Shown here: positions 7,642-57,391 of the stretch, one piece after another
How positions within the stretch are numbered: the stretch's first letter is position 1
Layout of the letters: each line of letters begins with the position of its first letter
Origin: a bacterium
GTDB lineage: Bacteria > Patescibacteriota > Minisyncoccia > Portnoybacterales > GWB1-42-6
Reading direction: 5' to 3'
NCBI GenBank assembly: GCA_043800535.1
Contig: JAZDMV010000023.1
Location: 27,264 to 91,263, forward strand
DNA: 64,000 nucleotides
Made by a program: the position numbers and the translations under genes
Notes under the pieces: model-generated
The model's database searches: none
Seen by the model: the letters and a program-made list of their open reading frames with translations, nothing else
What the model was told of the DNA's origin: nothing

Positions 7642-7664
7642 ATGCCCCGCACGGTGCGGGGCAT
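7642..7664 (+). terminator. Intrinsic terminator after the PMT-family gene. It is built on the recurrent CCCCGCACGGTGCGGGG palindrome.
   Basis: ATGCCCCGCAC-g-GTGCGGGGCAT followed by TTTATAATTATTT. Confidence 0.6.
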
Positions 7665-9518: not shown

Positions 9519-10811
9519 CTATTTTTTCTCAATTTTCTTAAACCCGCATAAATCGCGCAAAACTTTAGGAATTTCCACGCTTCCGTCTTTTTGCTGACAA
9601 TTTTCCAAAATCGCGATTAAGATCCTGGGCGAAGCAATAACCGTATTGTTTAACGTATGGACGTATTTTGCGACACCTTCGGCATCTTTATATTTTATAT
9701 TCAGACGCCGCGCCTGCCAATCCGTTAAATTGGAATCCGAATGCGTCTCTCCGTATTTGCCGCGCGAAGGCATCCAAGTTTCAATATCGTACATCTTATA
9801 TTTGCCCGCCCCCATATCGCCGGTACTGCTCAAAATAACATGATACGGCAGCTTCAAATCCCGCAGAACACCCTCTGAAATTTCTCGCATTTTTTCAAGC
9901 CAACCGCTTGATTCGTTAATATCATTCTTGCAAAGCACAACTTGTTCCACTTTCATAAATTCATGCACTCGATAGAGACCTTTTGTGTCCTTGCCATAAC
10001 TGCCGATCTCGGAACGATAGCTCTGCGAAAATCCGCAAACTTTTATCGGCAGATCTTTTTCGTTCAAAGTTTTATCGGAAAAATATGCCAAAAGCGTCGG
10101 CTCTGATGTTCCAGCAAGATAAAGCGGATCTTCTATCACCTCGCCGCTTACCAGTTTGCCCGGGTTGCCAATTTGATATATTTCGTCTTTTCCAAACGGG
10201 AAATGTCCGCTGCCAAACAAAACAAAATCTTTAATAAGTGTTGGGCCAAGCAGCGGTGAAAAACCGCTTTTAATCATTCTCTGCCAGCAGTACCAAATAA
10301 CCGCAAGATGCAGCCGCGCCCCTTCATTTTTTAGATAATAGCCGCGGAACCCGGAAACTTTAACCCCTGCCTCCGTGTCAATAATATCCAGATCGCGGCC
10401 CAGATCCATATGGTCTTTTATTTCAAAATCAAACTCCGGCAAATCGCCCCATTTAGCCACTTCCTTATTTGCTGATTCATCTTCGCCAACAGGCGCGTCT
10501 TGCGCGGGAATATTTGGCACAAGCATCATTAAATAACTATATTCTTTTTCAACGACGGCCAGTTTTCTTTCAAACTCCTTAAATCTTTCTTTCAATTCTT
10601 TTGATTTTTCCAGAAGAGATTCGTTTTTTTCCTTTGCCAGCTCTTTGGAAAACTTATTCTGCTCCGCCTTCAGGGCTTCTGACTTCTGAATTAGATTACG
10701 CCGATTTTGGTCCAATTCCAAAAGCCGGTCTATATCAACCTTCAAAAACTTCTTCTTAACCGCGTCTTTTACCAGATCAGCGTTTTGGCGGATGAATTTA
10801 ATGTCCAGCAT
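9519..10811 (-). CDS. serS: Seryl-tRNA synthetase.
   Basis: An N-terminal coiled coil (MLDIKFIRQN...) is followed by a class II catalytic core. Confidence 0.85.
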   Translation of the reverse strand: MLDIKFIRQNADLVKDAVKKKFLKVDIDRLLELDQNRRNLIQKSEALKAEQNKFSKELAKEKNESLLEKSKELKERFKEFERKLAVVEKEYSYLMMLVPNIPAQDAPVGEDESANKEVAKWGDLPEFDFEIKDHMDLGRDLDIIDTEAGVKVSGFRGYYLKNEGARLHLAVIWYCWQRMIKSGFSPLLGPTLIKDFVLFGSGHFPFGKDEIYQIGNPGKLVSGEVIEDPLYLAGTSEPTLLAYFSDKTLNEKDLPIKVCGFSQSYRSEIGSYGKDTKGLYRVHEFMKVEQVVLCKNDINESSGWLEKMREISEGVLRDLKLPYHVILSSTGDMGAGKYKMYDIETWMPSRGKYGETHSDSNLTDWQARRLNIKYKDAEGVAKYVHTLNNTVIASPRILIAILENCQQKDGSVEIPKVLRDLCGFKKIEKK

Positions 10812-18855: not shown

Positions 18856-18892
18856 GAATTTCTATACTCAATCATTAATCCTTTTTAGACAC

Positions 18893-18972
18893 CCTACTAA
18901 TTTACTAATCTTTTACAAATATTACCAATAATACTAATAAATCCATATTTGCAGTATTTGTAAATTAGTAGA
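18893..18972. repeat. AT-rich palindromic intergenic element, family CCTACnAATTTACTAA...TTAGTAGG (copy 3, diverged).
   Basis: Shares the ACCCTACTAATTTACTAAT...TTTACAAATATTAC...ATTTGTAAATTAGTAG architecture with the elements at 30521..30600 and 32786..32880. Confidence 0.5.
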
Positions 18973-18976
18973 TAAA

Positions 18977-20635: not shown

Positions 20636-21673
20636 TTAAAATTTTAACAATAAATTTTCTAAAATTAGCCTGGCGTTGAAGCTGCTTTCACCAAGTAACC
20701 TTTGCGTCTCCTGAATATTTTTTATCAGGACACAAATTTTGCTAAACGGATATAAGCCGCTTTTTTCTTCCAGAATAGTCAGATTTTTTGCACCAACGCC
20801 CGCCAGCATCTGATCCCGAAACCAAACCAACCACTGCCCCAAAGCTTCTTGGGCTTCGGGCGTATTTTGCGCCATTTTCTGGGCATATCTGAACCTCTCG
20901 GAAAAATCTTTTTTTATCAGGTATTTCAGGTCGTCAACTAGTTTTTCCTGCCTCTGCCACGCCTCGTCTTCATTTAAAAGCGATACTGCCGCGCCCGGCC
21001 TGCCGGCTGATAATCTAGCCGCTTGTTTTATTTTTTTGTCATTTCCTGCACCAAGTTTTTTTAATCCTTCGGCGATCAAATTTTCTTTTACTGGCAGAAA
21101 TTTTATCAATTGGCAGCGCGAAACAATTGTTGCAAGAAGCGCCTGCGGCCGGCTCGTTATCAAAATCAACAAACTTTTTTGCGGTGGTTCTTCAAGCGTT
21201 TTTAAAAGGCAATTAGCCGCTTCCTGCGTCATTTTATCTGCTTCGTCAATAATTATCACTTTTTTTGTCGCAGAAAAAGGCGTTAAGTTCAGCTGATGCT
21301 GCAATTCGCGGATCTGGCCGATTTTTATTTCCTTATTTTTTACTTGTTCTTCCTCTTTCTCACCATTAATTGCTGCTTTGCTGCTTTCGCCGCCTGGTAC
21401 AACAAATAAAACATCGGGGTGCCTCCCTTGTTCAATCAGCAAACAGTTACGACACTTGCCGCCACGCTCAGCGTGGCTAGAGACGCGCTCAGCGCGCTCG
21501 CAAGCGCCGGAACCATCCGCCGCGTTTTGACATAAAAGCGCCTTTATAAATTCAAATGCGACTATTTTTTTTCCAACCTTCGGCGGACCGGCAAAAAGAT
21601 AAGCATGCGCCATGCGCCCGGTCTTTATGCTTCGCGACAAAAAATCAATAATTTTTTGATGGCCGATAATCAT
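20636..21673 (-). CDS. holB: DNA polymerase III subunit delta' (HolB).
   Basis: HAYLFAGPPKVGKK...LLCQ...GKCRNC...HPD. It carries a 15-aa palindrome-encoded insertion in the zinc-module loop (see findings). Confidence 0.75.
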   Translation of the reverse strand: MIIGHQKIIDFLSRSIKTGRMAHAYLFAGPPKVGKKIVAFEFIKALLCQNAADGSGACERAERVSSHAERGGKCRNCLLIEQGRHPDVLFVVPGGESSKAAINGEKEEEQVKNKEIKIGQIRELQHQLNLTPFSATKKVIIIDEADKMTQEAANCLLKTLEEPPQKSLLILITSRPQALLATIVSRCQLIKFLPVKENLIAEGLKKLGAGNDKKIKQAARLSAGRPGAAVSLLNEDEAWQRQEKLVDDLKYLIKKDFSERFRYAQKMAQNTPEAQEALGQWLVWFRDQMLAGVGAKNLTILEEKSGLYPFSKICVLIKNIQETQRLLGESSFNARLILENLLLKF

Positions 21674-21756: not shown

Positions 21757-22863
21757 TTATATATTATACCCCACTTTCTTCAAAAAATCTATCAGCTCCC
21801 GCCTGAATCTTTCTTCTGAAAACTTCTCCGCCCGTTTATGGATAACAAGAGGGCTATAATTGGTGAGATTCTCGCGCAGGCGGCGGACTCCGTCCGCCAA
21901 AATCTCCGGCACCGCGTCGTAAAAAAATTCACCCGTTACGCCCGGAATTATTGTTTCAAGCGCGCCACCTCTGCCAAAAGCCAGAACCGGCTTGCCCCAA
22001 CCCATTGCCTCAACGGGCGCTATGCCAAAATCATCTTCGCCCGCAAAAACGAAAGCGGTGCAATTCTTCAGGTATTTATTTTTTTCCTCCTCGTTTCTTT
22101 CGCCTAAGAATTTAATTGTCGGGCCAGCCAGCTCCTCTAATTTTTCTCTTTCCGGCCCGTCACCGATTATTAAAAGCAGCAATTTCAAACGATTAAACGC
22201 CTCAATTGCCAGGTCAATGCGTTTATAGGGTGTCAGCTGCGATACAATCAGAAAATAATTTTCATCTTTTGCTGTCCTGAATTGTCCAAACGTCGGCAGA
22301 CAAACAGGCGGGTAAATAATAAAAGCGTTTCGGCGATAATACTTTTGTATTTTTTCTCTTGTCGCTCTGGAATTAGCGATAAAATAATCGGGCCGCCGCG
22401 ATGAGGATTTATCCCATATCCTCAAATAATGTACTACTAAAGTTGCCAAGGCCCGGCGAACTGGCCCAAAGTCTTGCTCGCGGATATATTGCTTGTTCCA
22501 GTCCCACAGAAACCTTGAAGGCGCGTGACAGTAGCAAATGTGCGTGGTGCCGGGCCGGGTGATTATGGATTTGGCGAAAGCCGAAGACGAAGAAATAACC
22601 AGATCGAATTCCCGCAGATCAAATGTTTCGGCCGCTACTGGTAAAAATGGCAGAAGGTGTTTCTGCCGGCGCCTGATAAATTTGGGCAGCTTTTGCAAAA
22701 AAGATGGCCGTATGTCTGCCCCTGCCAAAACTCCGCCCATTTTTTCTTCGTCGTATAAAAGAGTGTAAATCGGAGCTTCAGGAAAAATTTCATGCAATTT
22801 TAAAAGAACCCTCTCCGCCCCTCCTAATCTAATTAAATAATCGTGGACTAAAGCGACCTTCAT
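21757..22863 (-). CDS. Glycosyltransferase family 4 (GT-B).
   Basis: The C-terminal EX7E-like region is FVFAGEDDFGIAPVEAMGWGKPVLA. The start was chosen at the ATG that abuts the upstream stop, whereas the ORF track extends to 22908. Confidence 0.7.
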   Translation of the reverse strand: MKVALVHDYLIRLGGAERVLLKLHEIFPEAPIYTLLYDEEKMGGVLAGADIRPSFLQKLPKFIRRRQKHLLPFLPVAAETFDLREFDLVISSSSAFAKSIITRPGTTHICYCHAPSRFLWDWNKQYIREQDFGPVRRALATLVVHYLRIWDKSSSRRPDYFIANSRATREKIQKYYRRNAFIIYPPVCLPTFGQFRTAKDENYFLIVSQLTPYKRIDLAIEAFNRLKLLLLIIGDGPEREKLEELAGPTIKFLGERNEEEKNKYLKNCTAFVFAGEDDFGIAPVEAMGWGKPVLAFGRGGALETIIPGVTGEFFYDAVPEILADGVRRLRENLTNYSPLVIHKRAEKFSEERFRRELIDFLKKVGYNI

Positions 22864-23993
22864 TTTTCCGTCAAAAATTGCAGCGTCTCCTTCGCGCATT
22901 TTTTCCAACTAAACCGTTTTAAATTTTCGTATCCCAATTCTATCAGCTTATCACGCGCCTGCTTGTCGTCAATCAATTTGTAAATAGTTTCCGCGATCTC
23001 TTCAGAGTTTTTTGGACTAACAAGCAATGCCGAATTGTTTACCACTTCCGGCATGCTTGATATATTCGAAGTGACTACGGGAATACCAGCGGCCTGCGCC
23101 TCCAAAATCGGCATGCCAAAACCCTCATAGAGCGAAGGGAAAAGAAATACGTCTGCACCGGACAACAATTTTTGCTTTTCATCTTCGCTGACATAGCCAA
23201 GTTCGTGGACTTGAAACTTGAAACTTGAGACTTGAGACCTTATTTTATCATAGCCGAATCCCGGCGAGCCGACCAAAACCAATTCATGCGGGATTTTGTA
23301 CTTCTCTTTTAATGTATTATACGCCTCAAGAATCCCCAAAACATTCTTTTTCAATTCAATTCGTCCTATATACAACAAATATGGTCTGTCTACATCTGTC
23401 ATCCCGGGCTTGACCCGGGATCCAGGCTGTGGACTCTGACTTTTGTCAGATTTGCAAAATGACACTCCGTGATGTACTACGGTAATTTTTGATTCATCTG
23501 CCTCATATAGCTTCATCAAATCATTTTTCGTACTTTGGGACACCGCAATAATTTTTCTTGCATGCTTGACCGCATATTTTGTGCTCCATCGCAAATATTG
23601 CCGGTGACGCCACGGATACATTTCGGGAAAATACTCGTATTCCAGGCCATGAATCGTAACGACTGAATTTTTCGGATGCACCAACGGCAAAACATGCACT
23701 GGAATAAAAAGCGCATCGGGCTTATTAAAAACCATCTCCGACGCCAATCTCAACTGCGTCCACATCGGCAAAGGCCATTTTAATTTTTTGACCTGAAAAT
23801 TCTCGGGCAATTCAAAGTCAAATCTGGGTAAACCCGCCTCCGCTCTTCGAGCTACGGCGGGCAAGTATAACAAAAATCGATGCTCCCCAGCTTCTGGCAG
23901 CATCGTTAAATGTTTTATCAACTGGTATACATACTCTTCAACGCCCGTTCGCGGCTGTTTTATCGCCGCCGCAGCGTTAATTCCGATAGTCAT
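22860..23993 (-). CDS. Glycosyltransferase family 4 (GT-B) with an in-frame palindromic insertion in the interdomain linker.
   Basis: FLFPSLYEGFGMPILEAQAAGIPVV. The 66-bp GC-rich element at 23398..23463 lies inside the ORF. Confidence 0.7.
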   Translation of the reverse strand: MTIGINAAAAIKQPRTGVEEYVYQLIKHLTMLPEAGEHRFLLYLPAVARRAEAGLPRFDFELPENFQVKKLKWPLPMWTQLRLASEMVFNKPDALFIPVHVLPLVHPKNSVVTIHGLEYEYFPEMYPWRHRQYLRWSTKYAVKHARKIIAVSQSTKNDLMKLYEADESKITVVHHGVSFCKSDKSQSPQPGSRVKPGMTDVDRPYLLYIGRIELKKNVLGILEAYNTLKEKYKIPHELVLVGSPGFGYDKIRSQVSSFKFQVHELGYVSEDEKQKLLSGADVFLFPSLYEGFGMPILEAQAAGIPVVTSNISSMPEVVNNSALLVSPKNSEEIAETIYKLIDDKQARDKLIELGYENLKRFSWKKCAKETLQFLTEK

Positions 23994-24047: not shown

Positions 24048-24491
24048 TTAATCTTTCCATCCATATTCACCATATGCAATTCCCTTCAAATAGAGCCTAA
24101 ATACTTCTTTGATATAATCAACTGTATTCTTTGGCGGTTTTTTTATTGGGAAAAATCTCATATCATCACATTTATGTGGCTCCATAATTTTTGGCTCACC
24201 CTTCCAGTTCTTTACTGTAAAGAAAATATCTATTCTTTCTCCATCGTCTGCCCTTCTGCTCAAAACATGCACAAGACGAACATCTTTTAATCTAATTGAA
24301 ATCCCAATTTCTTCTTTTATTTCACGTATTAATGCTTGACCTATTGATTCCTTCCCTTCCAGATGGCCGGAAGGTAGCCCATATTGACCATCACAAAAAC
24401 CTGTTTGAAATCTTCGTATCAAAAGAACTTCATCTTTTTTTGTTAAAATAAGGTACACTGCGGGTATTATCTTGAATCTTTGTTTTTTCAT
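24048..24491 (-). CDS. Nudix hydrolase.
   Basis: Nudix box GHLEGKESIGQALIREIKEEIGI. Confidence 0.8.
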   Translation of the reverse strand: MKKQRFKIIPAVYLILTKKDEVLLIRRFQTGFCDGQYGLPSGHLEGKESIGQALIREIKEEIGISIRLKDVRLVHVLSRRADDGERIDIFFTVKNWKGEPKIMEPHKCDDMRFFPIKKPPKNTVDYIKEVFRLYLKGIAYGEYGWKD

Positions 24492-27217: not shown

Positions 27218-27307
27218 AAAAACAATAATTTATGATTTTATCTTATACCAAATGCCGCCTTTTGACAATCTTGAAAAATATTCAAAAGTGCGCTATATTT
27301 GTAATTA

Positions 27308-30516: not shown

Positions 30517-30520
30517 GTCA

Positions 30521-30600
30521 CCCTACGAATTTACTAATTTCTACAAATATTACGGATATAATATTTGTAAGATTGGTAATGATTCGTAATTTAGTAGGGT
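30521..30600. repeat. AT-rich palindromic intergenic element, family CCCTACGAATTTACTAA...TTAGTAGGG (copy 1).
   Basis: About 85% identical to 32786..32880. It has an internal perfect inverted repeat TACAAATATTA / TAATATTTGTA. Confidence 0.6.
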
Positions 30601-31541
30601 TATTTTAATTCAAAACCGTGCTTCTTCAACGCTTTTTTGATCTCTTTTATACCCTTATCTCCCATGCCCTCGATCTCTTTCAAAGACCCTTCGCTTTTTT
30701 TTGCCAAGCCGCCGAGCGTCTTTATTCCTGTCTCGACCAACGCATTAACTGTCCTGGTTGAAAGCTTTAATTCTTCAATTTTTATTTTAGTTGCTTCATC
30801 GCCCGCTTTTTCATCTTTGACCACGGCTTCTTTTTTTTCTTCTTCCTCCTCGCCTTTTTCCATCTCTAAAAATAGACCGAACTGGTCAACTAAAATTTTC
30901 GCTGCCTGAATAAACGCTCCTTCAGGCGAAATGCTGCCATCTGTTTCTATCTCGATTTTCAGCCGGTTAAAATCCGTTTGCTCGCCCACGCGCATATTCT
31001 CAACCTGAAAATTTGCTTTTGTCACCGGCGTGAAAAATGAGTCAATCGCAATCATTCCTATTTCCAGCTTCTCTTTTCTCCGTTTCTCCACCGGCACAAA
31101 TCCAAGCCCTTTTTCAACTTTTATTTCTATTTCCAGTTCCGCTTTTTTGTCGGATAGGCTTACGATGTGCGCATCTTTGTTTATAACTTCTATTTCAGAA
31201 CTTATTTTAATGTCGCCTGCTTTTACATCTTTCTGCCCCTTAGCCGAAAGAAAAACAGTTATCGGTTCTTCGCCATAATATCTGAATCTTATTTTCTTTA
31301 AATTTAAAATAATCTCAATCGCATCCTCGATCACGCCTGGAATTGTGGAAAATTCGTGCTGGACACCCTTGATTTTAAAACCGGTGGCCGCTGCACCAAC
31401 TAGAGAAGACAAAAGAACACGACGCAACGCATTACCCAACGTTATCCCATAACCAGGGTAACATCCCTCAATTTCAAAAACGGCGCGGTTTCCCTGCTTC
31501 TCAATGACCTTTGGTTTTTGAGGGAGAGGTATGTTTTGCAT
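30600..31541 (-). CDS. rpoA: DNA-directed RNA polymerase subunit alpha.
   Basis: N-terminal domain sequence YGITLGNALRRVLLSS plus a C-terminal alphaCTD. Confidence 0.9.
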   Translation of the reverse strand: MQNIPLPQKPKVIEKQGNRAVFEIEGCYPGYGITLGNALRRVLLSSLVGAAATGFKIKGVQHEFSTIPGVIEDAIEIILNLKKIRFRYYGEEPITVFLSAKGQKDVKAGDIKISSEIEVINKDAHIVSLSDKKAELEIEIKVEKGLGFVPVEKRRKEKLEIGMIAIDSFFTPVTKANFQVENMRVGEQTDFNRLKIEIETDGSISPEGAFIQAAKILVDQFGLFLEMEKGEEEEEKKEAVVKDEKAGDEATKIKIEELKLSTRTVNALVETGIKTLGGLAKKSEGSLKEIEGMGDKGIKEIKKALKKHGFELK

Positions 31542-32780: not shown

Positions 32781-32785
32781 GGCGT

Positions 32786-32880
32786 CCTACGAATTCACTA
32801 ATTTTTACATATATTACCTGCCGGCAGACAAACGAATATAATATTTGTAAAATTGGTAATGATTCGTAATTTAGTAGGGT
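32786..32880. repeat. AT-rich palindromic intergenic element, family CCTACGAATTCACTAA...TTAGTAGGG (copy 2).
   Basis: The 3' 45 nt (ATATAATATTTGTAAAATTGGTAATGATTCGTAATTTAGTAGGGT) are nearly identical to the copy at 30521..30600. Confidence 0.6.
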
Positions 32881-32881
32881 T

Positions 32882-40449: not shown

Positions 40450-41802
40450 TTACTGAATTACTCCTCCACCCAATAGTTCACCTTTTTTGCTATAGAACAC
40501 CGCGCTCTGTCCCGGCGTCACCGCCCGCTGGGGCTTGCCGAAAATTACACGCACAGTGTCATTGCGAGCCCCGACGTGAAATCGGGGCGTGGCAATCCTG
40601 TAAATAACAGCCGGACTAGCTTCGCTCTTATATCTTATTTTTATCAAAACTTCCTGCGGCAATTTTGCCTGCCCTCCGTAGCCTTGCCTGCCCGCAGTAG
40701 CTTTAGCGAAGGAGGGGCGGAGGCGGGGCGCTTGCCTGCTTGTCCAATTTATATTGCCCGCCGCCAGTTCTTTGCTATACAGATCTTTTTCATCGTTGCT
40801 GACATATAAAATATTTTTGCGCGTGTCTTTTTTAACCACCCACCACGGCCCCTGGTTCAATGGAATATTTTTACGCTGCCCGATGGTATAAAACGCTAGA
40901 CCCTGATGTTCACCCAAAATTTTACCATCTTTCAATTTGTCATTCCCGCGAAAGCGGGAATCCAGACTGGATACCGGATCAAGTCCGGCATGACACGAAT
41001 TATAATCTACTATTTTTCCTAGCTTCATTTTTATATATTTTTTCAAAAAGCTTTCAATATCGCGCGCCACAAAACAAAGATCAAAGCTCTCGCCCCGCCT
41101 GAAAGACAGTCTCCATTTTTTTGCTAATTTATACACTTCCTCTTTCGTATAGTCGGCCAAAGGAAATAATACGCGACTCAATTGCCTCTGTGTCAACGCA
41201 TACAAAAAATATGACTGATCCTTATCTTTATCCTTGGCCTTAAAAATTGTATACGTGTCATTGCGAGGAGCCCCGCACCGTGCGGGGCGACACGGCAATC
41301 CCAAAATGATATCGCCAACGGCTGTTTGCCTCGGGATTGCTTCGCCCCGACTTACATCGGGGCTCGCAATGACGCTACTTTGTATTTTCGCATAATGCCC
41401 GGTGGCAATATAATCAGCCCCCATGCCGAGCGCTTTTTTGAATAAAAGCCCAAACTTAATTTTTTTATTGCACACAACGCACGGATTTGGCGTTCGCCCG
41501 GCGTCGCTCTCGCGCAAAAAATGATCAACTACTTCTTTTTTAAATTCTTTCCCCAGGCGCAGGATATAAAAAGGGATGTCTAGTTTTGAAGCCACGTCTC
41601 TAGCCGCCTGCTCTGCACCCGCGCTACAGCAAGTATTTGTAGCCGCAAAGCGTGCATTCGGCTCTGCCCAGAAACGCATAAAAACGCCAACGACATCATA
41701 TCCTTGCTTTTTTAATAACGCCGCTGCCACAGAAGAATCAACCCCACCAGACATTGCAACTATTACTTTTCCCTTTGATTTGCGCATATTCTCTTCTATC
41801 AT
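40450..41802 (-). CDS. mnmA: tRNA-specific 2-thiouridylase MnmA carrying four in-frame palindromic-element insertions.
   Basis: VIVAMSGGVDSSVAA PP-loop...GADYIATGHYA...KDQSYFLY...AVTPGQSAVFY. It is about 83 aa longer than E. coli MnmA. The ORF-track start at 41970 is probably too far upstream, and the ATG at 41802 (MIEENMRKSKGKV) follows a terminator. Confidence 0.75.
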   Translation of the reverse strand: MIEENMRKSKGKVIVAMSGGVDSSVAAALLKKQGYDVVGVFMRFWAEPNARFAATNTCCSAGAEQAARDVASKLDIPFYILRLGKEFKKEVVDHFLRESDAGRTPNPCVVCNKKIKFGLLFKKALGMGADYIATGHYAKIQSSVIASPDVSRGEAIPRQTAVGDIILGLPCRPARCGAPRNDTYTIFKAKDKDKDQSYFLYALTQRQLSRVLFPLADYTKEEVYKLAKKWRLSFRRGESFDLCFVARDIESFLKKYIKMKLGKIVDYNSCHAGLDPVSSLDSRFRGNDKLKDGKILGEHQGLAFYTIGQRKNIPLNQGPWWVVKKDTRKNILYVSNDEKDLYSKELAAGNINWTSRQAPRLRPSFAKATAGRQGYGGQAKLPQEVLIKIRYKSEASPAVIYRIATPRFHVGARNDTVRVIFGKPQRAVTPGQSAVFYSKKGELLGGGVIQ

Positions 41803-51084: not shown

Positions 51085-51210
51085 CCCCGCCTAGAAGTTA
51101 CTCAAAAAATTGCCGACATTTACAAGAGCAAGCCGCAGGCGATTCGCTGGAAAACATTCACCAACCAAACACGTTGTCGAACTTCTGGCGGGGTCAAAAC
51201 TTTTTTTGTT
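51085..51210 (+). ncRNA. Candidate ~125-nt structured RNA closed by a 14-bp terminal stem and followed by a U-run. Its identity is unknown.
   Basis: CCCCGCCtAGAAGTT...(90 nt)...AACTTCTGGCGGGG, then TCAAAACTTTTTTTGTTG. It lies in the secD upstream intergenic region and has internal GCGATTCGC and GGAAAAC features. Confidence 0.3.
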
Positions 51211-51215
51211 GTTGA

Positions 51216-51244
51216 GCGGCGCCCCGCACGGTGCGGGGCGCCGC
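51216..51244. repeat. GC-rich palindrome GCGGCGCCCCGCAC-g-GTGCGGGGCGCCGC.
   Basis: The CCCCGCACGGTGCGGGG core recurs at 7645..7661 and, with the central GG replaced by CC, inside the mnmA insertion (41271..41287). Confidence 0.6.
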
Positions 51245-51319
51245 GGCTATCTTCCCTGTAATGATCAGACGCCTGAAAAAAATCAGGCCGGACAAAAATG
51301 TCCGACCTGCCTTTACAAC

Positions 51320-52150: not shown

Positions 52151-52681
52151 TTAATTTAATGAATCAACCACCGTAACCTCCCATTTAAGAACTTCGCACC
52201 CCTCTGGACTGTTAAACAGCGCCTTGCCACGAAACTTATCGCGTCTCAGGAGTAACGGAAGCCAATACCTATCAACCTGCCACATGTCATCATAAGGAAT
52301 ATCTTCGATTCTGAATTTTTGTGGGCGCATCTCGTTTGTTTCTTCCGCCTTCCCTTCCCATTTATCCGCCAGATAAGCATGCATCTCCACGATCAGCGGC
52401 ACTTCTGTAAATTCAAATTCCATAATTCCCTGCTTCTCTAATCTTTGTACTGAAATCCCGGCGCCTTCGAGGCCTCCTGTTTCCTCCCACACCTCCCTCA
52501 CTGCAATTGTGTCAATCCACTCGTCCGCCTCCTGTTTGCCTCCAAAACCATTCCATTTTCCGGCACCGAACAATCCCTCTTTTTTCATCCCCAACCAGAT
52601 CTCTCCTGTTTCAGGAATTGTGACGAAACACACCGTCGCTACTATTCTTTTCTTCTCCATAAATCCCTCCTCTTTTTTCAA
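52151..52681 (-). CDS. Nudix hydrolase.
   Basis: Nudix box GGKQEADEWIDTIAVREVWEETGG. Confidence 0.7.
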   Translation of the reverse strand: MKKEEGFMEKKRIVATVCFVTIPETGEIWLGMKKEGLFGAGKWNGFGGKQEADEWIDTIAVREVWEETGGLEGAGISVQRLEKQGIMEFEFTEVPLIVEMHAYLADKWEGKAEETNEMRPQKFRIEDIPYDDMWQVDRYWLPLLLRRDKFRGKALFNSPEGCEVLKWEVTVVDSLN

Positions 52682-54672: not shown

Positions 54673-57391
54673 GGCACTTCTTATATTTCTTTCCACTTCC
54701 GCACCAGCAAGGGTCGTTGCGGCCCAGCTTAGCTGGGCTTGAGCCCCGCTGAGCGGGGCGGCCAATGTTTTTGTTACCTGAGGCAGAAGCAGATGGGTCG
54801 GTGCCACGATTTTCGCGCGCTTGCGCCAAAGGCAATTCTTGTCGCGGAGCGTCTTTTGCCAGCACGACTTTATAGATTGATTTTACAATATTTGACTCAA
54901 TCGCCGCCAGCAGATCCCGAAATAATCTGTGGCCTTCGTTTTTGTATTCAACCAGCGGGTCTTTCTGGCCATAAGCTCTTAATCTGACGCTGTCGCGCAG
55001 ATGCTCCATATTATCCAAGTGATCCATCCAGAAAATATCGATCGTCCGCAGGGTTAAAAACTTTTCAATTTCGCGCATGCTTTGCGGCCCGACTTCTTTT
55101 TCTTTCAGTTCATAGGCATTTCTGGCGGCTTCCAGCAAATAATTTATTATCTCATCCCGCTCTTTTAATTCCCGAATTTTTTGCTGGGCGTTAATTGGCA
55201 AAGGAAATATGGAATTTGCCGCTTCATAAATTTCTTTCAGATTCCATTCGCTCGCGTCTCCGGCCGTATTAAATTCCACCAGCCCCCGAACTTCTTTTCC
55301 TATCCATTCGCTGACCTGTTCGCGCAGATCAGCCCGTTTGTCATCGCGAGGAGCCGAGTCATCGAGGTGACGCGGCGATCCCGTGTTATGATTTTCTGCG
55401 GGATTGCTTCGCTCGCCCCCTCCAAGCGGGGTCTCGCTCTCAATGACACGACTTTTGCTTTCCAATATTTCTTTTCTCCATCTATAGATCCTCTCTCTCT
55501 GCTTATTCATCACGTCATCGTAATCAAGGACGTGTTTCCTGACATCAAAATTATATCCCTCGATCTTGGCCTGCGCGCCTTCAATCGCTTTTGATATCAT
55601 TCCGTTTTCTATTGCTTCGTCTTCCGGCATTTTCAAAACTTCCATCATCCGCTTAATTCTGTCCGAGCCAAAAATACGCATTAGATCGTCCTCCAACGAA
55701 ACAAAAAATTGTGAAGAACCCGGGTCGCCTTGACGTCCCGCTCTGCCGCGCAACTGGTTATCAATTCTCCGCGCCTCATGGCGCTCCGTGCCCAAAATAT
55801 GTAGGCCACCTGCCTCCACAACGCCTTCGCCAAGTTTAATATCAACGCCGCGGCCCGCCATATTGGTTGCCACTGTCACCGCGCCTTTTTGCCCTGCCTG
55901 CGCGATGATCTGCGCTTCCTGTTCGTGGTTTTTAGCATTCAAAAGCTGATGCGGAATGCCTTCTTTTTTAAGATAAGCGGATAAAAGTTCGTTTTTTTCT
56001 ATGGAAACAGTGCCCACAAGCACTGGCTGGCCAATTTTGTGTTTCTCTTTTATTTCCCGAACCACGGCGATAAATTTGCCGTTTTCCGTGCGATAGATCC
56101 TGTCACGCAGATCCTGACGCACCATGGGCTTGTTTGTCGGCGCAACCACCACCTCAAGCTTATAAACTTTGAAGAATTCCTCCGCGTTTGTTGCCGCGGT
56201 TCCCGTCATGCCGGCCAATTTATCATACATACGAAAATAATTCTGGAACGTAATTGTGGCCAATGTGCGCGACTCCTGCTGAACTTTAACGCCTTCTTTT
56301 GCCTCGATCGCCTGATGAAGGCCTTCTGAATACCGGCGGCCAAACATCAAACGGCCCGTAAAATCGTCCACAATGATAGCTTCACCATCTTTCACCACAT
56401 AATCCTTATCAAGTTTGAAAAGCACTTCCGCCCGCAATGCCTGTTCTAAATGATGAACATATCTTATGCCGCCTTCATTATAAATATCCATGCCCAGAAT
56501 TTTTTCAACTTTCGCAATGCCTTCCTCGCTTAAGCTAACCGTCCGCATTTTTTCATCAATTGTGTAATCTTCTTCTGCTTTTAATTTGGGCACGATCCTG
56601 GAAAAAGTTTCATATAGTTTTCCGGAATCAGCATCCGGCGCTGAAATAATAAGCGGCGTCCGCGCCTCGTCGATCAAAATTGAATCCACCTCGTCCACTA
56701 TCGCGTAGTGATGGCCTCGCTGAGCCATTTGCGACAGATCCTGCACCATGTTGTCCCGCAGATAATCAAATCCAAATTCGTTATTTGTGCCGTAAGTAAT
56801 ATCTGCCTGATAAGCAAGCGGGCGCGGCACTTCTTTTAAATTTTGCATTTCAACTGTGACTTCGTTTCTGTCCGGGCCGGAATGCGGTTCAAAAAGATAT
56901 GCTTTATCATGCACGACACAGCCGACCGAAACACCGAGTGCCTGATAAATCGGCCCCATCCAGTTGGTGTCACGTTTGGAAAGATAGTCGTTGACAGTGA
57001 CAACGTGCACGCCTTTGCCTTCCAGAGAGTTTAAATAAATTGCCAGGGTTGAGGCCAAAGTTTTGCCTTCGCCTGTTTTCATTTCCGCGATACGCCCCTG
57101 ATGTAAGACAGTCCCACCAAGAAGCTGCACATCAAAATGCCGCTGACCAAGCGTTCGTTTTGAAGCCTCGCGCACCGCGGCAAATGCCTCGGGCAGAAGC
57201 TCGTCCAGCGCCTCACCTCCGCCAACTGGCGGATTCAGGCGCTTACGAAATTCTTCAGTTTTTCCCTTAAGCTGCGGATCAGAAAGCGCCTCAAATTCTT
57301 TTTCCAACCCGTTGATCTTTTCAACCAACGGCATAAGTCTTGAGGCCTGCCGCTCATCCGCACTGCCGAAAATTTTAGATAGAATAGACAT
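54662..57391 (-). CDS. secA: Preprotein translocase ATPase SecA. It carries an in-frame 36-codon palindromic-element insertion and a C-terminal zinc finger.
   Basis: 909 aa. DEAD-like motor, and the C-terminal [15 protein letters not shown]. The segment [38 protein letters not shown] is encoded by 55340..55447. Confidence 0.9.

Follow-up and report, generated by a model that had tools for sequence, protein, structure and literature searches.

We analyzed a 64,000-nt stretch (hereafter, the window) of contig JAZDMV010000023.1, contig positions 27,264 to 91,263, from a Patescibacteriota genome of the order Portnoybacterales (GCA_043800535.1), in which two palindromic segments lie within genes: one in a gene for a family 4 glycosyltransferase (GT4) and one in holB, the gene for delta-prime. 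We consider it probable that both are hairpin repeats that inserted into coding DNA, are linked to a nuclease, and survive where they are in frame, free of stop codons, and placed in surface linkers or loops. The elements belong to repeat families, are inserted in frame, form a filled and an empty pair at holB, occur as nested copies at the GT4 site, and are associated in other genomes with genes for GIY-YIG nucleases. Judged by sequence, the GT4 element is of a known kind, the NTS/SRM/CGTC-REP type (SRM, Ssn-related motif), in a phylum new to it. The holB double hairpin behaves alike but is a family with its own GIY-YIG subfamily, which we did not find described.

The GT4 element

The GT4-type open reading frame (ORF; 377 aa, 22860-23993, minus strand) encodes a protein that matches an NCBI entry from a metagenome-assembled genome at 100% identity and has its other database relatives in Candidatus Portnoybacteria and Parcubacteria. 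The initial annotation had described a 66-bp (22-codon) palindrome of the form GTCAT...ATGAC at 23398-23463. Its sequence (GTCATCCCGGGCTTGACCCGGGATCCAGGCTGTGGACTCTGACTTTTGTCAGATTTGCAAAATGAC), its GT4 setting, and its site immediately before the RPYLLYIGR motif stand, but its extent does not: the element consists of two hairpins with GTCAT tags, arranged as an inverted pair and partly decayed, and spans 60 bp (20 codons) at 23397-23456. The intact arm (23397-23426, plus strand) is an SRM (NTS-like) hairpin consisting of TGTCAT, an 8-bp stem whose sides are ATCCCGGG and CCCGGGAT around the 5-nt loop CTTGA, and a CCAGG tail; the stem, at 23401-23421 with its loop, is perfect. The second arm is inverted (23427-23456, minus strand) and reads TGCAAATCTGACAAAAGTCAGAGTCCACAG on the sense strand; it derives from TGTCATTCTGGCGAAAGCCAGAATCCAG according to alignment with four relatives (L001-L004) whose corresponding arm is an intact SRM. 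Its true terminus has eroded to TTTGCA at 23451-23456.

The far ATGAC is excluded from the element because orthologous DNA has host codons there. Positions 23459-23463 are the host Val-Ser codons (GGAGTGTCATTT in the window vs GGAGTCTCATTT in L001), and the surrounding Val-Ser-Phe region at 23457-23463 (minus strand) reads GTCTCATTT in L001, GTTTCTGTT in L002, and ATTTCTATC in L003, the GTCAT on the sense strand being there by chance. We rejected a single 66-bp unit closed by its GTCAT...ATGAC termini, the closure used in the RNA fold, since one of these termini is host sequence in the orthologous DNA. The segment folds at -15.9 kcal/mol as DNA (z = -3.75 against shuffled sequence) and at -31.1 kcal/mol as sense-strand RNA (z = -3.81).

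The published SRM pattern, HGTCWYN(0-2)YYVSBRHN(0-5)WNVSBRGN(0-2)RNCYNB, has three matches in the window (23397-23425, 40938-40965, and 52595-52625), compared to 0.08 expected from 100 dinucleotide shuffles. This pattern does not cover the decayed GT4 arm, the elements of the GTCATTGCGAG type described below, or the holB double hairpin.

We then compared the linker DNA across the orthologous, syntenic locus of six relatives (L001-L006). An inverted pair, TGTCATTCTGGCGAAAGCCAGAATCCAG ... CTGGATCCCGGGTCAAGCCCGGGATGACA, occupies the identical GT4 site in four of the six (L001-L004, all Portnoybacteria assemblies). Extra material is nested within the element in L001, L003, and L004; in L004, a perfect NTS is inserted in the loop of another. 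The linkers of L005, L006, and a further relative, L193, are unrelated. From copy to copy we observed compensatory changes in the stems (CCCGGG/CCCGGG vs CCCGGC/GCCGGG). Linker length varies between 13 and 45 aa in an alignment of 37 GT4 orthologues, and 11 of them carry arm-derived peptides, such as CHSGESQNP...SRVKPGMT, in differing frames; in one of these, a different frame is used for the second arm (...DWMPDQVRHD). The linker segment is present only where the DNA hairpin pair is present, and neither the GT4 nor the holB orthologues contain a segment conserved as protein in the absence of its DNA palindrome, the observation that the initial annotation had named as contrary to insertion.

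These comparisons suggest that the GT4 copy is old and common to the relatives, being either a diversified old insertion or the product of an insertion hot spot. A single ancient insertion as the sole history was rejected: L193 has a different segment and the orthologues use different frames, which makes recurrent insertion or replacement at a GT4 hot spot equally possible.

The holB insertion

The second element is a 39-bp double-hairpin insert (21461-21499, minus strand) in the delta-prime ORF (20636-21673, minus strand). On the sense strand it reads GAGCGCGC-TGA-GCGCGTCTC-TA-GCCACGC-TGA-GCGTGGC and encodes ERAERVSSHAERG inside a C-x2-C zinc knuckle; on the plus strand, it forms the hairpins GCCACGC-TCA-GCGTGGC and CGCGC-TCA-GCGCG. 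The GTCAT tag is absent, and the DNA fold has a z of -2.84. The initial annotation had recognized these hairpins but assigned them 45 bp and a site between LLCQ and GKCRNC. The 13 inserted codons lie between the second and third zinc-ligand cysteines (AC/insert/GKCRNC, compared to SC/GHCRGC in E. coli, the zinc ligands being those of the E. coli protein) and outside the long loop that follows LLCQ.

The prediction that removal of the segment restores the canonical spacing was borne out by an empty site. The L193 homologue (P0242) is 79% identical and exactly 13 residues shorter, and reads AGT GCA TGC/GGT AAA TGC where the window reads GGC GCT TGC/39 bp/GGC AAG TGT. Alignment to E. coli delta-prime likewise leaves a 13-residue gap exactly at the insert. 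Compared first to six syntenic orthologues and then across 41 HolB homologues, ERAERVSSHAERG is unique to the window, the insert columns being empty in the other 40 of the 41. An AlphaFold2 model built with the 41-sequence alignment has a mean pLDDT (predicted local distance difference test) of 87.5 and a pTM (predicted template modelling score) of 0.83, with pLDDT below 50 only at residues 60-71, which are the insert, and 98-108. The holB copy is younger than the GT4 copy and comes from a second repeat family.

We note that L193 is the closest relative in HolB (79%) yet not in the adjacent GT4 (~67-71% vs 73-77% for L001; L193 302-1519), which hints at recombination or at uneven rates between neighbouring genes. 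Other hypervariable loops in the GT4 orthologues (columns 66-120 and 345-385 of alignment A1) and the HolB orthologues (columns ~75-110 of alignment A2) contain the recurring peptides PPLNLRGGEGEL, IPPSPPLEKGGEEG, PAVARRAEAGL, and HPSQYPPLDKGREG; these are probably further in-frame repeat families across Portnoybacteria.

The double-hairpin family

A sibling of the holB insert lies in the C-terminal tail of secA (54722-54760, minus strand), where it encodes 13 residues immediately before the zinc-binding motif. The two are identical at 26/39 positions in the same register, a score reached by just 3 of the 127,922 39-mers of the window. Both match in register the consensus GGGACGC-TGA-GCGTCCC-AAA-GCCACGC-TGA-GCGTGGC, in which two GC-rich stems, each of 7 bp and each closed by a 3-nt T-N-A loop, lie 3-4 nt apart.

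A search pattern of 20 specified bases, built from the holB and secA copies, matched 105 metagenome contigs, compared to ~1-2 by chance on a rough estimate from the typical collection size. The seven stem positions that the pattern leaves free are 80-90% Watson-Crick paired, with 3-4 pair types each, among 95 distinct copies. One match (L090, 751-972) arises from a 21-bp tandem array encoding (GGSPAQR)n, a protein tandem repeat, and was left out of the family statistics. Long open frames contain 60 of 112 copies, mostly read as G(D/N)AER(P/S)QSHAERGG. The apparent hosts, which we judged by reading the sequences, include DNA ligase LigA, topoisomerase I TopA (inside its zinc ribbon), DnaJ, GatA, the Arg-, Ala-, Tyr-, and Thr-tRNA synthetases, MurD, MurF, UvrD, and PriA, among others. 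Many further double hairpins adjoin tRNA 3′ ends (L091, L095, L124-L126, L136, L154, L160, L164, and others).

Two features of these locations were apparent on inspection. At tRNA genes, the last double-hairpin stem runs into a region complementary to the ..GCCA acceptor end. Within proteins, the inserts recur at zinc cysteine motifs, namely the HolB C-x2-C, TopA (CPKCG/insert), the LigA zinc finger, and the position before the SecA C-terminal motif (L141, L099, and the window), and this recurrence may reflect a preference for TGCGG/GGC-like target sequences. Literature searches with the repeat DNA strings, with the peptides, and with terms for MITEs (transposable elements of the miniature inverted-repeat kind) and the candidate phyla radiation (CPR) returned nothing relevant beyond two papers discussed below (PMC11893778 and PMC3733652), and no paper with the double-hairpin sequences.

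Association with GIY-YIG nuclease genes

The GIY-YIG query matched a very large family of ~95-aa nucleases (Pfam PF01541); among solved structures, the UPF0213 protein 1zg2 comes nearest to them (E = 9e-4). In other genomes, members of both repeat families lie on either side of genes for such small nucleases (a single domain, ~90-100 aa), arranged much like an insertion sequence. We examined 81 loci from one-per-species genomes across phyla for the GTCATTGCGAG...CTCGCAATGAC termini of an element that also occurs in mnmA (see below). Both termini were present in the right orientation at 28 of 83 GIY-YIG genes, compared to 10 in a reversed-word control, and the terminal 10-mers occurred 250 times in 679 kb, compared to ~5 expected. 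These 10-mers replaced plain GTCAT/ATGAC word counts near the genes, which were too unspecific (43 vs 24 in the reversed control).

The flanked layout is clear in the Patescibacteria/CPR loci L007, L026, L063, and L071. In L007, from Parcubacteria, the gene for P0198 has GTCATTGCGAGCGTAGCGAAGCAATCTC on its upstream side and GAGATTGC...CTCGCAATGAC on its downstream side, and these are the termini of the 117-bp mnmA element. The strict SRM pattern has no match around this gene, its flanks being the GTCATTGCGAG variant that lies outside the pattern.

Contigs with double hairpins carry eight genes of a second GIY-YIG subfamily (...REKYLKGGNG...), five of them at most ~150 nt from a double hairpin. 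The usual order is tRNA, double hairpin, gene, double hairpin. That genes of this subfamily directly follow several of the tRNA-adjacent copies suggests landing sites next to tRNA genes.

Other copies in the window

In mnmA we found three segments. A compact inverted pair of NTS type (40938-40995; TGTCATTCCCGCGAAAGCGGGAATCCAG-A-CTGGATACCGGATCAAGTCCGGCATGACA) encodes CHAGLDPVSSLDSRFRGND and falls within residues 322-346, which form a segment that solved MnmA lacks; past the first base, its left arm equals the Neisseria NTS consensus (GTCATTCCCGCGMAVGCGGGAATCYRG) at 27/27 positions. A 117-bp element (39 codons; 41257-41373), GTCATTGCGAG...CTCGCAATGAC, has nested GC-rich hairpins on both arms and fills another extra segment, aa 199-238. 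The third is a solo arm of the GTCATTGCGAG type (40558-40597, minus strand; sense GATTGCCACGCCCCGATTTCACGTCGGGGCTCGCAATGAC) encoding IATPRFHVGARND. When aligned to solved MnmA, every residue of this peptide pairs with one in a strand region, with no length excess; the alignment makes it seem that the arm replaced native codons instead of adding to them.

Besides its double hairpin, secA contains a 108-bp element (36 codons; 55340-55447), GTCATCGCGAGG...CTCTCAATGAC, which is of the GTCATTGCGAG type and lies within a stretch (aa 648-712) that B. subtilis SecA does not have. As the initial annotation had proposed, at least four housekeeping genes are affected: GT4, holB, mnmA (three segments), and secA (two). 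All seven intragenic segments (7/7) preserve the frame and are free of stops in the frame used. For context, the NTS pair is open in 4/6 frames, and the window is ~90% long open frames, 50 of 57 on the minus strand.

Outside genes, a degenerate arm of the GTCATTGCGAG type lies at 51207-51251 (plus strand; hairpin GCGGCGCCCCGCACGGTGCGGGGCGCCGC), and a stand-alone hairpin, GCCCCGCACGGTGCGGGGC, lies between convergent ORFs at 7644-7662, the same module being nested in the mnmA element at 41270-41288. The hairpin GCCCCGCAC(C/G)GTGCGGGGC occurs three times, alone and terminator-like at 7644-7662, nested at 41270-41288, and in the degenerate intergenic arm at 51220-51240; the hairpins seem to combine in a modular way.

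Several further repeats came to our attention. A stretch of mnmA at 40663-40735 (minus strand) belongs to a further extra part of MnmA, aa 413-454 being unmatched in the solved structure; it encodes RLRPSFAKATAGRQGYGGQAKLP, has the direct repeat GGGCAGGCAA twice, and looks like another repeat-derived insert, of a non-GTCAT type. A small hairpin in secA (57218-57233; TCCGCCAACTGGCGGA) encodes PPVGG where the protein has a 4-residue insertion compared to B. subtilis SecA, and a near-identical hairpin, GTCCGCCAATTGGCGGAT, is nested in the L001 GT4 element at ~10603-10622; their likeness suggests a third mobile hairpin module. A separate intergenic family consists of AT-rich imperfect palindromes of ~80-90 bp (ACCCTACGAATTTACTAATTT...AAATTAGTAGGGT) that end in ...GTAGGG, at 30519-30601, 32785-32881, and 18889-18975, two of the three being 96% identical over 50 nt. 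Finally, a weak GIY-YIG match at 24354-24458 was set aside, as the ORF reads by eye as a NUDIX-type hydrolase.

A proposed mechanism

We propose that the copies in the window are gene-less, MITE-like derivatives of GIY-YIG units that resemble insertion sequences (IS). Their hairpins would extrude in single-stranded DNA (ssDNA), where a cognate GIY-YIG nuclease, supplied in trans, would cut beside the hairpin as SsnA does in Neisseria, and the cut might then lead to copying or re-insertion. Selection would purge the copies that break genes, so that only in-frame, stop-free copies in loops stay, and the encoded peptides, which are predicted to be disordered, would be by-products. Mobility driven by the nuclease is thus argued by analogy with SsnA, and we infer that the inserts are neutral.

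Several points weigh against this proposal. No GIY-YIG gene was found in the 64-kb window by motif regular expression or tblastn, nor in the syntenic L001-L006 (~108 kb), and the called-gene list of L193, a gene list rather than a tblastn search, contains no GIY-YIG domain. The GIY-YIG query was a hand-written consensus, and NCBIfam gave no family for the proteins it retrieved, which are candidate members of the Ssn clade (cd10448). For SsnA, only ssDNA binding, ssDNA cleavage, and modulation of transformation have been shown, and not the transposition of repeats (PMC11893778). The initial annotation had asked whether the insertions share a target-site duplication; we observed no consistent one, and the holB filled and empty pair (TGC/insert/GGC vs TGC/GGT) has no clear duplication, at most an ambiguous GC/GGC repeat. 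The GT4 copy is decayed and common to five assemblies, and it may long since have ceased to move. That the inserts are translated we infer from frame preservation. Lastly, the tags in the window are TGTC (23397, 40938, 41256, and 55339) and not the CGTC of the CGTC-tagged repeats to which we compare them below.

A broader reading is possible, and we offer it tentatively: that Ssn-type GIY-YIG nucleases and their hairpin repeats are active mobile elements of CPR bacteria, which routinely enter coding DNA and account for a main share of the lineage-specific peptide insertions in CPR housekeeping proteins, even in zinc knuckles (that of HolB here, and the TopA and LigA zinc modules in metagenome contigs). 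If this is true, the holB filled and empty pair would be direct evidence of the movement of an Ssn-type repeat, and the double hairpins, together with their GIY-YIG subfamily, would make up a new Ssn-like system.

Alternative explanations

We rated each of the following explanations below insertion of nuclease-linked hairpin repeats. The one that survives best, which we regard as unlikely, is that the hairpins are kept as nucleic-acid signals, acting in translation pausing at domain boundaries, in mRNA stability or processing, or as sites of ssDNA uptake or recombination, as NTS do in Neisseria. Compensatory changes maintain the stems, the GT4 copy persists across species at an inter-domain linker, many family members adjoin tRNA 3′ ends or sit terminator-like between convergent genes, and NTS and SsnA modulate transformation (PMC11893778). 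However, the repeats occur in unrelated genes and positions, close orthologues differ in whether they have them, one of the GT4 arms shows decay with no hint of compensation, and an Rfam scan of the whole window at gathering thresholds returned no RNA family.

We think it very unlikely that the peptides themselves are adaptive, for example as interaction surfaces, with selection acting on the amino acid sequence. Although the frame is kept and similar peptides (..AERxQSHAERGG.. and ..SRVKPGMT) recur in many proteins, this recurrence tracks the DNA repeat and not the host protein: one repeat is read in different frames, as CHSGGNRNPDWMPDQVRHD in one case and CHSGESQNP...PGMT in another. The holB insert, moreover, is absent from 40 HolB orthologues and is predicted to be disordered.

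Slightly less credible again is removal of the inserts before the mature protein is made, by excision at the RNA level or by protein splicing. Excised segments would need neither an intact frame nor freedom from stops, and the preservation of both in 7/7 intragenic segments is hard to reconcile with excision; neither intein nor intron signatures were seen, and Rfam gave no family. What speaks for this explanation is that extra residues placed between two HolB zinc ligands seem disruptive and that the segments form strong local structures.

Local origin by replication slippage or template switching, with no mobile spread, deserves still less weight. It would fit with no target-site duplication having been seen at holB and with the likeness of the two holB hairpins to each other. 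It is contradicted by the same consensus appearing in unrelated genomes, as the holB insert matches its family position for position (105 unrelated contigs and secA) and the GT4 arm matches a motif common across phyla. An assembly or binning artefact, conceivable for a window taken from a metagenome-assembled genome, can practically be dismissed, given that independent assemblies, derived from a variety of samples and sources, have the GT4 element at this very site and that the frames are intact and the surrounding gene order conserved.

Significance

Insertion of nuclease-linked hairpin repeats would explain many unexpected differences in length, and many low-complexity loops, among CPR/Patescibacteria proteins; such loops are recognizable from the DNA repeat and not from the protein. 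It would also link in-frame palindromic selfish DNA with the Ssn ssDNA nucleases; for the former (the Rickettsia palindromic elements, RPEs, and the CGTC-tagged repeats), no enzyme was known. The holB filled and empty pair and the second family with its GIY-YIG subfamily offer substrate-enzyme pairs with which to probe whether such nucleases can move their repeats, and inserts of this kind should be anticipated in gene calling, orthology assignment, and structure prediction.

Comparison with known systems

One of the closest counterparts is the SRM/NTS system (Chenal et al. 2025, PMC11893778), NTS being an extended form of the Neisseria dRS3 repeat. SsnA binds the NTS hairpin in ssDNA form only, and its cut falls a few nucleotides upstream; SsnA and NTS modulate transformation in Neisseria, and the authors remark on the IS-like NTS-ssnA-NTS layout while calling the role of Ssn outside Neisseria still to be elucidated (PMC11893778). 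The text of that paper does not contain the terms Patescibacteria, candidate phyla, Parcubacteria, intragenic, or in-frame. The window shares with this system the GTCAT tag, a 7-8-bp stem, a short loop, and an ATCC(A/G)G tail, as well as, in other genomes, the inverted repeats around a small GIY-YIG gene; it differs in that this gene was not found in the window.

The CGTC-tagged REPs (repetitive extragenic palindromes) described by Di Nocera et al. (2013, PMC3733652) have 8-9-bp stems and 4-5-nt loops, occur mainly as inverted dimers, and were equated by these authors with Neisseria dRS3 and with Rickettsia RPE-4 and RPE-6. Dimers inside ORFs code for 20-30 aa, frequently in genes of replication and repair, and the authors place them in what they believe to be flexible linkers; they noted that an enzyme specific to these repeats was not known, and CPR is not among the phyla they list (PMC3733652). 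Apart from the tag, the likeness is close: an 8-bp stem, a 5-nt loop, inverted pairs (GT4 and mnmA), and in-frame copies. With RPE-1, described as palindromic selfish DNA that lies in frame in unrelated housekeeping genes and is compatible with their folds (Ogata et al. 2000, summarized in PMC10969869), the window shares in-frame palindromic inserts. We matched the two on behaviour and not on sequence; RPE-1 is ~100-150 bp long and specific to Rickettsia.

REPs and their RAYT enzymes present a parallel arrangement, in which hairpin repeats recognized as ssDNA flank an enzyme gene and gene-less copies are scattered elsewhere. REPs, however, bear a GTAG tag and are paired with a tyrosine (HUH) transposase of the IS200/IS605 type, whereas the elements here have GTCAT or no tag and a GIY-YIG partner. 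None of the window elements bears a GTAG tag, and the neighbour gene of family members encodes a GIY-YIG protein; RAYT genes were not searched for. MITEs such as Correia/NEMIS, ERIC, and RUP resemble the window copies in being gene-less, in having terminal inverted repeats tied to a gene-carrying unit, and in occurring occasionally in frame within genes. They differ from the present elements, which involve no DDE-type transposase, in which we observed no consistent target-site duplication, and whose arms are themselves hairpins. The termini GTCATTGCGAG...CTCGCAATGAC of the mnmA element at 41257-41373 are identical to those around GIY-YIG genes, which is the relation that a MITE has to its gene-carrying unit.

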